In this document: one piece after another, positions 7,882-21,314 of the stretch
Layout of the letters: each line of letters begins with the position of its first letter
Numbering within the stretch: position 1 is the stretch's first letter
Origin: Escherichia coli
GTDB lineage: Bacteria; Pseudomonadota; Gammaproteobacteria; Enterobacterales; Enterobacteriaceae
Assembly (NCBI RefSeq): GCF_003334315.1
Contig: NZ_QOWR01000005.1
Strand: one strand, 5' to 3'
DNA length: 64,000 bases
Made by a program: the position numbers and the translations under genes
Notes under the pieces: model-generated
The model's input: the letters and a program-made list of their open reading frames with translations, nothing else
What the model was told of the DNA's origin: nothing
The model's database searches: none

Positions 7882-9894
7882 TTACAACACCTCGCGAACC
7901 GAGATCCCCAGCCGCTGCATTCGTGACAGCAGCGTGGTGCGCTTCATCCCTAATCGCGTCGCTGCGCCACGGGGCCCGGCAACAATGCCATTGGTTTCTC
8001 GCAATACCTGAACAATGCGCTGACGTTCTTCTTCGTCATTCTCTGGCGTCGTCGGGTGCAGTAACTGCGCCATTGAACTGCGAAGCGCTGAATCTTCATT
8101 TAGCGTCGGCAGTAAACGGCTTTGTCGGACATTTAGATGTAAATTCAGACTGTTACCACGAGTCAGCAGTACCGCCCGCTCAATCACGTTTTCCAGCTCG
8201 CGCACGTTGCCCGGCCAATCCCACGACATCAACTGGCGTAGTGCCTCGGTCGGAATGGCGTCAATTGCGCGATTCATATGGCGCGCCATTTTTTGCGTGA
8301 AATGTTTTGCTAAAAGAGGGATATCTTCCGGACGGTCGCGTAGCGGCGGCAATTCCAGTGGGAAGACATTCAGGCGATAAAAGAGATCGCTGCGAAACTG
8401 GCGATCTTCAACCATTTGCCACAAATCACGGTTGGTGGCGGCAATGACTCTGACATTCACCGGGATCGTTCTACTCCCGCCGAGACGCTCAATCTCCCGC
8501 TCCTGCAATACGCGCAGCAGTTTAGGCTGAAGTTCTAACGGCAGATCGCCAATTTCATCGAGAAACAACGTGCCGCCATCGGCAATTTCAAAACGACCAC
8601 GATGGGTATTAATCGCACCAGTAAACGCCCCTTTGTCATGACCGAATAACTCACTTTCCAGAAGACTGGCGGGGATGGCAGCGCAGTTGATTTTGACCAG
8701 CGGCTTGTCGCGTCGCGGGCTAAGTTGATGGATCGCTCTGGCGATCACCTCTTTGCCAGTTCCGGTTTCACCACAAATCAACACCGTACTGTCGCTCTTC
8801 GCCACAATATCTACCTGCTGGAGCAGGTCTTCCATTGCCTGGCTTTGATAGATAATGTCACCGATGCCCAGATTCGAAAGGAGCTGCTCGCTAAGCTGGT
8901 GGTTTTCTTGCTGCAAACTTTCCTGCAAATCGGTCATGCTACGCCAGGCATCGGCATTGCCAACGGCAATAGCGATGCGATCGGCTATGTGTTGTAGTAG
9001 CTGGCAGTTTTCCTCACTAAAGAGAGTGGAAGAGGTATGCGCCAGCAACAATGCACCCGGTGTATGGTTGCCAAAGGTAAGCGGTATAAGGAGCGCAGAT
9101 TCGCAGCCGTTAGATGCAAGTAAGAGTAATAACGGGTCGCGTTGCCAGAGAAACAGATCATCTGCACGGTGCGTCAAGGTCGGTTGTCGGGTTTGTAGCG
9201 TTTGTGTCAGCAATACACTTTCGCCAGGCATACAGCGTGGCAGACACGCACAATGTGAGGCAGAAAGATCGCTGCACCACAGGCTGAACTTCTCGTTCTT
9301 TCGATGATCGCCCAGTACCATACTGACTGAAGCCAGACCGAAAAAATGATGGATCTCACGAGCGACGTCAGCGATCAGATCGTCGAGATCAAGATGTGAC
9401 AGCACTGCATTAGTAATATCAACCAGTACCCGATGATGATCGCGATCTTTCTCCAGCAAACGCAGCGCCACCTGCTGTTCTTCATCATTGAGCCATGATT
9501 GCAGAACCGGGGTGATTATCCGCGCCAGCCAGTTAAACAGTGTGCAATCCTGGGAAGTAAAACGACTGCCGTGGGTGCGAATAAAGCGTAGCTCCGCCAT
9601 TCCACTACTGCCGAGAAGGACGGCGTGACGCGAATAATCGACCATCTCGCCCTGATACTCTGTTGTTGCCGTCACATCGCTGCCATCATCATGGTAGCGG
9701 TAATAGAAGTTGCTTTTGAGAACATGCAGTTCAATAAGTTGTACCGGGCTGAACGGCGGCGGCAGCGGGATGAAGGCGCGTAATAAAGACGCCTTGCCGT
9801 GTTTCTGTGCTAACCGCTCCGCGAGCATTCCGTTTACCGCTTCAATTGTTATTCCTTGTGGCGGGGCAAACATCGCCTCGTCTGACATAGCCAT
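7882..9894 (-). CDS. hyfR: sigma-54-dependent transcriptional activator of hyf (GAF, AAA+ and HTH domains)
   Basis: [13 protein letters not shown]...; Walker [15 protein letters not shown] sigma-54 interaction motif, C-terminal HTH; start taken at second Met (670 aa), 9897 also possible. Confidence 0.93.
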
Positions 9895-9923
9895 CAACAG
9901 TCCTTATTAATGAGAAATCCTTC

Positions 9924-10337
9924 TCACGCAATTTTTCTGGCCATCAGATAGATGGCCGGTTCCTGCACAATTTCATCCAACAGATGAATGAATTGAATGC
10001 TACGCGCCTGCCACACAGACGTCGCGTCATCCGCCAGTGGCGCGAATGCCCGGGTCAACAGGGCGGTGTGGCTGGCGTCAATAACAATCTCACCAAAAGT
10101 CATCACCCCCAGCATCTTACGTCGGGCTTGCTCCTCTTCGACCAGTGCAAGCCAATCTTCGTATTCCGTCAGTGGGCAGCGGAAGGCGACATTCAGACAA
10201 TCAATCACGCCAACGTGATGGCCGATAGCTAGCGAGTAATACATTACCTGAGAGCTGTGTTCCGGCATCTCGTCGCTACTGGCGACAAACTTTTTTCGCA
10301 GCGTCCAGAAAACAATTTCCCCGCACTCTTCAGTCAT
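9924..10337 (-). CDS. hyfJ: hydrogenase-4 maturation/assembly protein (HycH-like)
   Basis: 137 codons from ATG 10337: [41 protein letters not shown]...; track ORF 10400 trimmed. Confidence 0.9.
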
Positions 10338-11088
10338 GTAACCCCCGGAGTACGCGAAAGAGTTGCTGAACGATACTATTGAGACGTGGATCGTCGGCAT
10401 CGCGCAACCAGGTGTTAACCCGATTTCCTGTAGGATCGTCGCTTAAATGGCGCAGGAGCCGATCGCAAATTTCTCGCCCCTGACGATAGCCCGCCAGCCG
10501 CCGCGCTTCTCGCTCAATGGCGATACGCTGTGATGGCGGGATCTGCGGCCACAACGGTTGCATAGTCACCCCGGTGGGATCGCGATAATCCACAGCGTGA
10601 ATCTTCTGTTGCAGCAAACCGAGCGCCACGGCGAAACCGTGAATGGTGGCGGCCGGTGTTGGCGGGCAGCCGGGGATCCAAACATCAATGGGGACAATGG
10701 TGTCGCTACCGCCCCAGACGCTGTAGAGATCGTGGAAAATACCGCCGCCGACACCGCACGCGCCGTAGGAAACACAAATTTTATGATCGGGGGCAGACTC
10801 ATACGCCCGAAGTGCAGGCATACGCATCGCCCGGGTGACTGCGCCAGTAAATAACAAAATATCGGCGTGACGCGGTGATGAAACAACCTTAATGCCAAAA
10901 CGTTCTGCGTCGAATACTGGTGTAATGGCAGCAAAAATTTCGATTTCACAGGCGTTGCAGCCGCCGCAATCGATGCGATAAACGTAAGCCGAGCGACGGA
11001 TATCCTGTAGCAAATGCCGCTTCATCTTTTGCGTTTGCTCGTCCAGCGTGATGGGCTGGCTGACATATTGTGTAAGCACTGGACTCAT
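10330..11088 (-). CDS. hyfI: hydrogenase-4 small subunit (NuoB-like, Fe-S)
   Basis: 252-codon ORF with [10 protein letters not shown] and GCPP motifs; overlaps hyfJ start by 8 nt. Confidence 0.94.
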
Positions 11089-17955: not shown

Positions 17956-19974
17956 TTAGACGGCAATAGCGATTAGCAGCACAACCAGTGCGGCGACCAC
18001 ATACAGGCAATAGAGACGAAAGTCGCCGCTTTGCAGATGCTGTATTTCTTTGGCCAGCCGTTGGGTGGCGCTCACGATGGGGCGGATCACCCGCTCATCC
18101 CAGAAGGGTTCTGTGCTCTGAGCCCTGGCGGTGACGTGCGCAAGACCTTTATTTAGCCTCAGCGTAGGGTCGAGCTGTTGTCGTAGACGAAATAGCGCAG
18201 AAAAGACCACACGCAGCGGCTGCATCACGCCATTGCCTGACGGGGCCATCGCATTTTCCCAGCTGTAGCCGCATGCCCAGGCATCTCCTGTGCGACGAAA
18301 CGCTGCGCGGCGCGAACGACACCACAGCCAGTAAAGGCCAGGCAGCAAAGGCATCGCCAGTAGTAACAGCAACAGTAATGAAGGAGTGACCCGTGTATGA
18401 AACGTGCCGGGTACAAGTGCTATTCCGCTGGCGACAGTGACGGGAGGGGTATCGGTAAACGCATGGGCAATATGCATTATCTTCGGTGCCAGCCAACTGG
18501 CACTAAGCGCAATTAATACGCAGAGTGCCGCGAGCAGTAGCATGGCGACGATCATCGTATTTGGCACTTCCTGTGCCTCTTCAGCGTGTGTACTGCGCGG
18601 CGCACCACAGAAAGTAATACCGTACATTTTTACGAAGCACATTACTGCCAGCCCACCAGTGACTGCCAGCATTACCATAGCAATAGGACCCGCAAGTTGT
18701 AGCGCTACGGCTTCCACACGACTTAGTGAGAACAGCGACTGCCAGGTGTACCATTCGCTGATAAAATCATTCAGCGGAGGAAGGGCTGATATCGCCAGGC
18801 AACCAATCAGGCATGCTGCGGCTGTCCACGGCATCCGTTTCGCCAGTGCCCCCATTTTTTCCATGTCGTGGGTATGCAAACGCGAAATAATCGCGCCCGC
18901 GCCGAGAAATAGCAGCCCTTTGAACAGCGCATGGTTGAGCAGATGAAACAGTGCGCCGAGCAGTCCAACCACGGTGAGCAGCGGGTCGTGCAGTGACAGA
19001 CCGACCATCGCCACACCGACCGCCAGCAAAATAATGCCGACGTTTTCGACGGTACTCCAGGCCAGTAGCCGTTTGATATCCTGTTCCGCCAGCGCATACA
19101 GCACGCCCAGGAGCGCGGAGATTGCGCCGATCGCCATCACCAGAATGCCCCACCACAGCGGCAAACCCGTTTGCGCCAGCAGATCCATCGCCACTTTCAG
19201 GATGCCGAAAATACCGATTTTGACCATTACGCCAGACATCAACGCTGAAGCGTGCGATGGTGCGGCAGGGTGAGCGCGCGGCAACCAGCTGTGCAACGGC
19301 ATCATCCCGGCTTTCGCGCCAAAACCGAAAAAGGCCAGCAGGAACACCGCCGACGCCAGCCCCGGAGAAAGTGAAAGCGTGCGGAAACTGGCAAAATCGA
19401 GGCTGCCGCTTTCGCGCCCCATCAGCAAGAAGGCGATCATTATCAGCACCGATCCGGCGTGGGCGATAAAAAAGTAGAGCATGCCAGCGTTGATCGACGT
19501 TTTATCCTGCCTGGCAATGACCAGAAACCAGGAAGACAGCGACATCATTTCAAACAGCACGATGAACCAAAAAGCGTTGTCCATCACCAGCAGGGCAACC
19601 ATCGATGCGATGAAAAGATTCATAAAGAAGCCCATCGCCGCCGCGCCTTTGCCCTCGTATTCGCGCATATAAGTCAATGAATAGAGCGAACAAACCACCA
19701 CCAGCAAGGAGATAACCAGCACCATAAATGCCGAGAGGCTATCCATTCGCAGGGTTAAATCGGCAAAGTCAAAAGGGGTGGCAAAATGGGCGACTAAAGT
19801 TACACCAGCATGTAATTGCGTAATTCCGCTGATGATGCCAATCACGCCGCCCACCAGCGATGTGATGCTGGAAAGCTTAATAGCCAGTCTGTCCAGACCG
19901 AGTAAAAACAGCGAAGCCAGACTGGCAAACAGATAGAGGATCAGCGACCAGGTTAATAATTGCAGGGCATCCAT
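17956..19974 (-). CDS. hyfB: hydrogenase-4 membrane subunit (NuoL/MrpA antiporter-like)
   Basis: 672-codon ORF MDALQLLTWSLILYLFASLASLFLLGLDRL... Confidence 0.95.
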   Translation of the reverse strand: MDALQLLTWSLILYLFASLASLFLLGLDRLAIKLSSITSLVGGVIGIISGITQLHAGVTLVAHFATPFDFADLTLRMDSLSAFMVLVISLLVVVCSLYSLTYMREYEGKGAAAMGFFMNLFIASMVALLVMDNAFWFIVLFEMMSLSSWFLVIARQDKTSINAGMLYFFIAHAGSVLIMIAFLLMGRESGSLDFASFRTLSLSPGLASAVFLLAFFGFGAKAGMMPLHSWLPRAHPAAPSHASALMSGVMVKIGIFGILKVAMDLLAQTGLPLWWGILVMAIGAISALLGVLYALAEQDIKRLLAWSTVENVGIILLAVGVAMVGLSLHDPLLTVVGLLGALFHLLNHALFKGLLFLGAGAIISRLHTHDMEKMGALAKRMPWTAAACLIGCLAISALPPLNDFISEWYTWQSLFSLSRVEAVALQLAGPIAMVMLAVTGGLAVMCFVKMYGITFCGAPRSTHAEEAQEVPNTMIVAMLLLAALCVLIALSASWLAPKIMHIAHAFTDTPPVTVASGIALVPGTFHTRVTPSLLLLLLLAMPLLPGLYWLWCRSRRAAFRRTGDAWACGYSWENAMAPSGNGVMQPLRVVFSALFRLRQQLDPTLRLNKGLAHVTARAQSTEPFWDERVIRPIVSATQRLAKEIQHLQSGDFRLYCLYVVAALVVLLIAIAV

Positions 19975-20591
19975 TAGCGTTGCTCCTGAGTGAGGGAAAG
20001 GGGATCCTCCCCGCCATTGGCAAACCAGCTTGCGGCAAGGCGCTGTTTTTCTTTCATCTGACGTTGCAGGCTATCGTCGGTGATCAGCCGTAACGCCTGA
20101 TTCGGGCAAGCGCGAACGCAGGCCGGACCTTCTGGCAAGAAATCACACAGGTCGCATTTCACCGCGACGGTCTGGACACCCGGTTCCCAGCGCAGCAACG
20201 CATGTTGGGGCAGCACGTTTTCTTCGCCGTTTTTGAGTGAGCCTTCAGCCTGAAAAACATATTGCGCATGGGCATTCACCGGACGGCTTCCTGAAGCGCT
20301 GATTGCGCCAAATGGGCAGACCACGGCGCAAAGCTTGCAGCCAATACAGAGGCTTTCGTTGAGTTGGATCGCATCATCCCTCTGAGAGATGGCATTGACC
20401 GGGCAGACCTGCAGGCAAGGGGCTTCCTCACAGTGATGACACACGACAGGGGCAGTGATTGTTGACGTCTTCGCCAGGGCCAGGCGCGGGTGTTGCTGTA
20501 AACCTTGCGTTTTATGCACGTCCGAACAGGCAGCGAGACAGGTATTACATCCTGTACACCACAGTGGTTCGGCCACCACAAAGCGGTTCAT
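19974..20591 (-). CDS. hyfA: hydrogenase-4 4Fe-4S ferredoxin subunit
   Basis: 205 codons from ATG 20591: MNRFVVAEPLWCTGCNTCLAACSDVH...; four CxxCxxCxxxCP-type clusters; upstream ATG 20630 lies upstream of the predicted sigma-54 start site. Confidence 0.92.
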   Translation of the reverse strand: MNRFVVAEPLWCTGCNTCLAACSDVHKTQGLQQHPRLALAKTSTITAPVVCHHCEEAPCLQVCPVNAISQRDDAIQLNESLCIGCKLCAVVCPFGAISASGSRPVNAHAQYVFQAEGSLKNGEENVLPQHALLRWEPGVQTVAVKCDLCDFLPEGPACVRACPNQALRLITDDSLQRQMKEKQRLAASWFANGGEDPLSLTQEQR

Positions 20592-20632
20592 GTCGGCTCC
20601 TTGAAAATGATATGAAACATTGCATTTCATAT

Positions 20633-20648
20633 TGCATAAAGGATGCCA
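20633..20648 (-). promoter_or_regulatory. sigma-54 (-24/-12) promoter of the hyf operon
   Basis: Minus strand TGGCATCCTTTATGCA: GG at -24 and GC at -12 with canonical spacing (consensus TGGCAC-N5-TTGCA), about 30-40 nt upstream of hyfA ATG. Confidence 0.75.
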
Positions 20649-20843
20649 TTCTGATTAACTCAATATATTCAATAAGTTATGTATTAACTGGATTCTGAAC
20701 GGTACAAAAATGATGGTCATTAACGTTCAGCAAAAAATGGATTCGACACCCGTGTCGCAGGGGAAAGCGAGAATGTGATCTTCATCACGAGAAGTGAGGT
20801 ATGCTGGCCGCAAGCGCAGCCAGCACGGAATGGAGCAAAGTAA

Positions 20844-21314
20844 TCAGGCGTGTTCTTTCAGCCAGTTCAGCACAACGTCGTGGTGATTGCTGGTTTTGAA
20901 ATCGTCAAAGACATGTTCGATTTTGCCATCAGCGTCAATCAGGAAGCTGATGCGATGAATGCCATCGTAGGTTTTGCCCATGAAGGACTTTTCACCCCAG
21001 ACGCCGAATTGTTCGCACACCTGGTGGTCCTCATCAGACAGGAGCGTAAAGTTAAGCAGCTCTTTTTCCGCAAAACGGGAGAGTTTTTCGGGTTTATCGG
21101 TGCTGATACCCAGCACATCAACGCCCGCTTTTTTCAACTCATCCATGTTATCGCGTAAGCCGCAGGCCTGTACGGTACAGCCGGGGGTCATGGCTTTCGG
21201 GTAGAAATAAACCAGAACACGCTGTCCCTGGAAGTCGGTCAAATTAACTTGTTCTCCGTCTTGATCCGGCAAGCTAAATTTCGGTGCGATATCACCGGCT
21301 TTCAGTGGATTCAT
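20844..21314 (-). CDS. bcp: thiol peroxidase / bacterioferritin comigratory protein (peroxiredoxin)
   Basis: 156-codon ORF MNPLKAGDIAPKFSLPDQDGEQVNLTDFQGQRVLVYFYPKAMTPGCTVQACG... Confidence 0.96.
   Translation of the reverse strand: MNPLKAGDIAPKFSLPDQDGEQVNLTDFQGQRVLVYFYPKAMTPGCTVQACGLRDNMDELKKAGVDVLGISTDKPEKLSRFAEKELLNFTLLSDEDHQVCEQFGVWGEKSFMGKTYDGIHRISFLIDADGKIEHVFDDFKTSNHHDVVLNWLKEHA

Follow-up and report, generated by a model that had tools for sequence, protein, structure and literature searches.

A conserved palindrome upstream of hyfA is a probable HyfR/FhlA enhancer of the Escherichia coli hydrogenase-4 operon

Sigma-54 promoters need a site for an enhancer-binding protein, and the hydrogenase-4 (hyf) operon of E. 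coli raises the question of where that site lies upstream of its first gene, hyfA. To address this, we analyzed a 64-kb stretch of DNA (the window) that represents the bcp-hyfA region of E. coli, in which bcp and hyfA both lie on the minus strand. The two genes were assigned by matching 301 bases around a palindrome in their spacer to 5,425 of 5,426 complete E. coli genomes, in which the flanking genes are annotated as bcp and hyfA; the gene order is the same in the K-12 record. The spacer is 252 bp long and runs from the bcp stop at 20844 to the hyfA ATG at 20591 (MNRF...), on the minus strand. About 1,128 of the 5,426 genomes match the bcp end of the query only. In the sole partial match examined, L053 (NZ_CM172811.1), bcp is followed directly by yfgO (an AI-2E family transporter), and the entire hyf-focB cluster is absent together with its promoter. 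The features of the window from which the argument starts are the following.

19974..20591, minus strand: hyfA, hydrogenase-4 Fe-S subunit (RefSeq annotation of identical DNA), the operon's first gene, downstream of the sigma-54 promoter.

20633..20648, minus strand: hyfA sigma-54 -24/-12 promoter, TGGCAT-CCTTT-ATGCA (TGGCATCCTTTATGCA), 12.0 bits with the RpoN matrix.

20743..20757, minus strand: candidate UAS box of FhlA/HyfR type, CGACAC-GGGT-GTCG and the conserved following A (CGACACGGGTGTCGA), assigned by register, conservation and position.

7882..9897, minus strand: hyfR, an intact ORF for a sigma-54 enhancer-binding protein (Pfam Sigma54_activat 8e-75, GAF, HTH_8).

The promoter sets the frame in which an enhancer has to be sought. 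The -12 C of the sigma-54 element is 43 nt from the ATG, and from this element we place the inferred start site near 20621-20622, some 30 nt ahead of the ATG. This agrees with primer extension by Skibinski in 2002, which is said to have put the start site 30 nt before hyfA. The TGGCA..TGC of the promoter is invariant among the orthologous spacers of Citrobacter and Kosakonia. At 12 bits the E. coli promoter is modest, compared with 14-17 in most other genera. In vitro, gSELEX placed an RpoN holoenzyme peak in the bcp/hyfA spacer, at 92% in one screen and as the highest in the other (PMC8743547). Within 20610-20637, an inverted repeat (ATATGAAA / TTTCATAT) surrounds the -12 element and the start site, and ATTGCAT occurs twice with a 12-bp spacing; neither repeat is found in Citrobacter or Kosakonia. 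Elsewhere in the window, three matches to the sigma-54 matrix, all on the minus strand, outscore the hyfA promoter (13.8 bits at 9455, 13.3 at 8057 and 12.5 at 10613, vs 12.0), and these fall inside hyfR and inside an ORF at 10330-11088. They could be tied to an independent transcription of hyfR-focB, which Skibinski reportedly described in 2002. Alternatively, they could be intragenic sites like those surveyed in PMC4591121.

A preliminary description of this DNA had singled out the palindrome cgacac-cc-gtgtcg (CGACACCCGTGTCG) at 20744-20757 as a candidate enhancer, and both its sequence and its coordinates are exact: the inverted-repeat listing gives 6-nt arms, 100% complementary, with 2 nt between them. 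The distance of about 100 bp that it gave to the sigma-54 element also holds, as the palindrome is centred at 20750.5, ~104 bp upstream of the -24 GG. Relative to the inferred hyfA start site, the centre is at about -129 (-128.5 to -129.5). As a generic inverted repeat, the palindrome is within chance. The window holds 3.8 perfect 6+6 inverted repeats with spacers of 0-10 nt per kb, and a shuffled 252-bp spacer is expected to contain 0.63 of them (P of at least one, 0.40); the symmetry alone carries no meaning. As an FhlA-type pattern, the palindrome is beyond chance: 0.033 matches to YGWC-N6-GWCR are expected per spacer, and CGAC-ACGGGT-GTCG fits 8 of the 8 specified positions. The cross-genus pattern CGACAYNNNTGNCGA, derived partly from the palindrome site itself, has a single match in the 64 kb, which is at the palindrome (0.12 expected).

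We compared the palindrome with FhlA sites using the published consensus, TGWC-RAWRAT-GWCA, and a matrix built from 13 sites of Schlensog 1994 and Leonhartsberger 2000 (PMC7658346, Table 2). The K-12 promoters of hycA-hycB, hyc/hyp and fdhF served as controls, and gave these boxes.

hycA-hycB spacer: TGTCGAAAATGACA, 16.4 bits, and CGTCAAAAATGACA, 12.0 bits, 31 bp apart.

hyp/hyc spacer: TGTCGATGATGTCG, 15.4 bits.

fdhF, best box: CGTCAAAACTGACG, 8.6 bits.

Read as the 14-mer CGAC-ACGGGT-GTCG, the palindrome has its GWC cores 9 bp apart, and T10 and the outer C/G positions fit the FhlA box. It shares the outer CG...CG with the fdhF box CGTCAAAACTGACG and the words CGACA and GTGTCG with the FhlA UASs of the hycB side and of hyp/hyc; the arm word GTGTCG occurs twice in the former and once in the latter. 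The fdhF sigma-54 promoter, TGGCATAAAAGATGCA, in turn closely resembles the TGGCAT-N5-ATGCA of hyfA, which has the palindrome ~100-130 bp upstream. At first sight the arms run opposite to those of an FhlA box (GACA...TGTC vs TGTC...GACA), an objection that falls once the 14-mer is set in register: as the GWC core is self-complementary, CGAC-N6-GTCG aligns with the CGTC-N6-GACG of fdhF.

The matrix score is a different matter. The palindrome reaches 5.6 bits, compared with 8.6-16.4 for the K-12 controls, and 462 other 14-mers in the window do as well. The score is low because the spacer of the E. coli hyf box, ACGGGT, is G/C-rich and departs from the A/T-rich RAWRAT of the formate-regulon boxes, and an FhlA PWM scan by itself would have missed the site. 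The comparison with published FhlA sites bears out the register and the fdhF-like outer CG/CG, while the matrix score is weak. As the published matrix does not discriminate the palindrome, the conclusion rests on conservation. The comparison is at least not circular: C never occurs at position 1 of the matrix, whereas the palindrome starts with C in both orientations, and therefore the palindrome is not among the 13 compiled sites. Genuine FhlA enhancers have two clear boxes 31-33 bp apart, whereas E. coli hyf has one unambiguous box. Two candidates for a partner are GAACGTTAATGACC at 20715-20728, 29 bp from the main box, with 5.5 bits and its right half alone conserved, and TGATGAAGATCACA at 20774-20787, with 10.7 bits and, taken as a 14-mer, 30 bp from the box centre.

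If the palindrome is an activator site, then its half-sites should be kept where the promoter is kept. A scan with HyfA, using one genome per species, yielded 45 loci, most of them hyf-type by comparison with HyfB and HycC, and 7 of the 45 hyc-type with hycA upstream. The same one-genome-per-species scan returned no Escherichia or Shigella locus, and its best match was Citrobacter amalonaticus, at 70%. Four Citrobacter and two Kosakonia loci (L005-L010) keep bcp upstream and are therefore true orthologues. Among the resulting 7 sequences from three genera (E. coli, 4 Citrobacter, 2 Kosakonia), the half-site positions are invariant at 10 of 10 and the spacer positions at 0 of 4, compared with 25% invariant columns across the whole bcp-hyfA spacer (hypergeometric P=4.7e-7). 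The centre of the box reads GGGT, TAAT or TTGT, with the half-sites CGACAC and TG.CG fixed on either side. One change in an arm, T to C, gives TGCCG in orthologues and is uncompensated in the other arm, which argues for selection on the sequence rather than on RNA pairing; the nearest relatives thus have a TGCCG right arm, in contrast to the TGTCG that makes E. coli a perfect palindrome. The box is also invariant in five aligned E. coli sequences, which carry little information as they are at most 4% divergent.

The position of the box is kept as well: in each of five lineages (Escherichia, Citrobacter, Kosakonia, Atlantibacter and C. freundii M-21), its centre falls between -126.5 and -128.5. 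In the loci of the last two (L011, L012 and L014), the right half of the box lies within another palindrome of 9-1-9 layout, which reads AAATGCCGA-N-TCGGCATTT in Atlantibacter and, imperfectly, AAATGACGA-C-TCGGCATTT in C. freundii M-21. E. coli lacks this palindrome, which may provide those genera with a further operator.

We found the box again upstream of more distant hyf-type sigma-54 promoters, at -84 to -151, in six genera whose downstream gene is HyfB-like rather than HycC-like in all cases. The boxes and the positions of their centres are as follows.

Sodalis: CGACACTTATGACG, -119.5.

Dickeya: CGACATTAGTGACG, -120.

Morganella and Providencia: CGACACTAATGACG, -96.5 in Morganella and -83.5 to -94.5 in Providencia.

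Pectobacterium: CGACACTCTCGGCA, -84.5.

Uliginosibacterium: CGACACTTTTGCCG, -151.5.

The cross-genus consensus is T-CGACAC-(T/A)AAT-G(C/A)CG-A. These boxes have the CGACAC left half-site, T10, G11, C13-G14 and the following A in common with E. coli, as in CGACACTAATGACGA of Morganella and Providencia, CGACACTTATGACGA of Sodalis and CGACACAAATGCCGA of Atlantibacter, each with a sigma-54 promoter and an IHF-like site downstream. CGACAC/GTGTCG occurs at 6.2 per kb in the zone from -55 to -230, compared with 0.34 per kb elsewhere in the loci (P=1e-12). In an unbiased hexamer count over one promoter per genus (12 genera), the most widely shared hexamers were words of the FhlA half-site: TGTCGA, GTCGAA, CGACAC and AATGAC. 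There are also two differences. A second box is usually found 33-44 bp off in the distant promoters, at distances from the start that range from -84 to -151, as opposed to about -128 and one unambiguous box in E. coli. Moreover, the G/C-rich GGG spacer is found in E. coli alone, whereas all 15 other promoters examined have an A/T-rich one (TAAT, AAAT, TTGT). Comparable hyf-type systems in other Enterobacterales include that of Proteus mirabilis, whose hyf promoter depends on FhlA (PMC7658346), and FHL-2 of Pectobacterium, which depends on HyfR (PMC7384014).

The conservation does not by itself name the protein, and the box could instead be the operator of a different dimeric transcription factor that co-regulates hyf, with its likeness to an FhlA box coincidental. 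The low FhlA matrix score and the atypical spacer speak for this, as do other conserved blocks in the promoter region with no assigned factor (20704-20719). We nonetheless consider it improbable. The box co-occurs with hyf-type sigma-54 promoters in ~10 genera, at enhancer distances, and proven FhlA sites use the same half-site words; furthermore, a site for an enhancer-binding protein is needed, and the E. coli spacer has no better candidate. As for CRP, the palindrome does not match TGTGA-N6-TCACA; the window's only match is the neighboring element at 20774-20789.

An RNA-level reading is very unlikely. In this case, the palindrome would be a terminator or attenuator hairpin for read-through from bcp, with a CGACA/UGUCG stem followed by AAUCCAUUUUUU, and a simple scan does list it as such (a 5-bp stem, a 4-nt loop and a T-rich tail; 1 found vs 0.2 expected). 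The predicted fold of the region, however, omits this hairpin and is no stabler than shuffles (-5.1 kcal/mol, z=+0.65), the T to C change to TGCCG has no counterpart in the left arm, and orthologues do not keep the T-run. Scanning 20500-20950 against the covariance models of Rfam 15 turned up nothing at E values up to 1. A far stronger hairpin, immediately past bcp, can serve as the terminator instead.

20801..20826, minus strand: strong hairpin just past the bcp stop, -20.9 kcal/mol, z=-4.5, with 0 of 200 shuffles as stable.

This hairpin has no clear U-tract and is likely a bcp terminator or 3' stabilizer, outside the enhancer; at its place, Citrobacter has a different G+C-rich palindrome. 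Finally, it is scarcely credible that the palindrome arose by chance and does nothing, common as such repeats are, given half-sites that are invariant around a free spacer across three genera, a position fixed in five lineages and a box that recurs in distant hyf promoters.

Three further elements of the spacer bear on how an enhancer at the palindrome might work.

20667..20679, plus strand: IHF-like site ATTCAATAAGTTA (WATCAANNNNTTR, 1 mismatch), in the stretch separating the UAS from the promoter, centre ~-52.

20774..20789, plus strand: CRP-like palindrome TGTGATCTTCATCACG, centre ~-160.5, 31 bp from the UAS box centre.

20704..20719, minus strand: conserved block TGACCATCATTTTTGT, at ~-90, adjoining the weak box-like 14-mer at 20715-20728.

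The window contains IHF-like matches at the rate expected by chance. The core of this one, TAAC-N4-TTGA, nevertheless holds its place across the orthologues, and several of the more distant hyf promoters keep it too; IHF may bind at 20667-20679.

The CRP-like palindrome is the only TGTGA-N6-TCACR match in the window (0.23 expected), and its TGTGAT....TCA is invariant in Citrobacter and Kosakonia. The element scores 10.7 bits with the FhlA PWM and could alternatively be read as a second, atypical FhlA/HyfR box. It has C in place of the near-invariant G11 in all three genera, however, which makes CRP the better reading. Self reportedly described a CRP requirement in 2004. Furthermore, hyfR is among the CRP-cAMP-regulated genes in an EcoCyc-derived table. 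The spacer of the element is one base off K-12 and most other strains (G vs C, minus strand); the common allele is more symmetrical, GTGATC-AA-GATCAC on the minus strand and GTGATC-TT-GATCAC on the plus strand, and adds a second GATC Dam site.

The block at -90 (TGACCATCAYTTTTGT) is conserved like the UAS box, with 15 of 16 positions invariant among the 7 sequences from three genera. At the corresponding offset, Atlantibacter and C. freundii M-21 have CGACA half-sites, and C. freundii M-21 also has the related GGCCATCAC where the block would lie. Together with the adjoining 14-mer, the block may be a degenerate partner of the main box, or may be bound by another factor; compared by eye, the FNR, IHF, ArcA and CRP consensus sequences do not fit it. 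A 10-nt inverted repeat, CTGAACGGTA / TAACGTTCAG (90% complementary, 16 nt apart), brackets the block at 20695-20730. Its promoter-proximal arm is unconserved in Citrobacter or Kosakonia, and the repeat may be specific to E. coli.

Which activator would use such a box? HyfR has a GAF domain, an AAA+ sigma-54 interaction domain and a Fis-type HTH. HyfR and FhlA share 51% sequence identity, and their C-terminal HTHs, recognition helix included, are almost identical; an FhlA-type box is therefore also an expected HyfR site. Overexpressed HyfR is said to activate hyf strongly and not hyc, in work by Skibinski in 2002. Such a response implies some specificity determinant, and one possibility is that the -90 block determines the response of hyf to HyfR rather than to FhlA. 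In E. coli, hyf is regulated by FhlA (PMC7658346), and in Pectobacterium FHL-2 activity requires HyfR (PMC7384014).

Collectively, our analysis, which is one of sequences throughout, is consistent with a model in which the palindrome is most probably the core HyfR/FhlA enhancer (UAS) of hyfA, acting through an activator, an IHF-assisted loop and a sigma-54 open complex. The preliminary description had read the palindrome as a UAS for HyfR or FhlA, and this reading gains support from the register, the invariance of the half-sites, the recurrence across genera and the near-identical HTHs. In the model, a dimer of the FhlA family would bind the half-sites CGAC(AC)/(GT)GTCG through its C-terminal Fis-type HTH. 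Either or both of two formate-responsive activators could be the binder: HyfR, which is encoded at the far end of the operon itself, and the paralogous FhlA. The activator bound at ~-129 would oligomerize, and a DNA bend at the IHF-like site at ~-52 would bring it to the sigma-54 holoenzyme in the closed complex at -24/-12, after which ATP hydrolysis would drive open-complex formation. The CRP-like site at -160 and the conserved -90 block would probably modulate or complete the enhancer. The binding itself, the choice of activator, the looping by IHF and the roles of the neighboring blocks are all proposed here as parts of a model. A literature search, which did not reach the primary hyf promoter papers, found no paper that maps a HyfR/FhlA site upstream of hyfA; the box may already be marked in those primary papers.

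These results narrow the candidate enhancer of the hydrogenase-4 operon to one element of 15-16 bp and provide a cross-genus consensus for hyf-type UAS boxes. They make site-directed tests of HyfR vs FhlA control straightforward, and likewise tests of why hyf is near-silent in E. coli. On the latter point, we raise, as a speculation that we consider unlikely, that the E. coli enhancer is a decayed ancestral hyf-type box, in which the GGG spacer together with the modest promoter weakens binding of HyfR/FhlA. If this is true, then a weak enhancer could contribute to the near-silence of hyf, and swapping GGGT for TAAT would raise expression. The understanding of sigma-54 formate regulons is unchanged, as an activator site at such a distance is expected, and the box is an ordinary regulatory element of a known type within a well-studied regulon.

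The arrangement has familiar counterparts. NtrC at glnAp2 and the NifA UAS at nifH exemplify the generic bacterial architecture of enhancer, IHF and sigma-54 promoter, and both resemble the hyfA region in placing the activator site over 100 bp upstream, with an IHF-like bend site between it and a -24/-12 promoter. The regulators differ, in that NtrC is a response regulator, whereas FhlA and HyfR belong to the GAF-domain branch, and the recognition sequence is also different.
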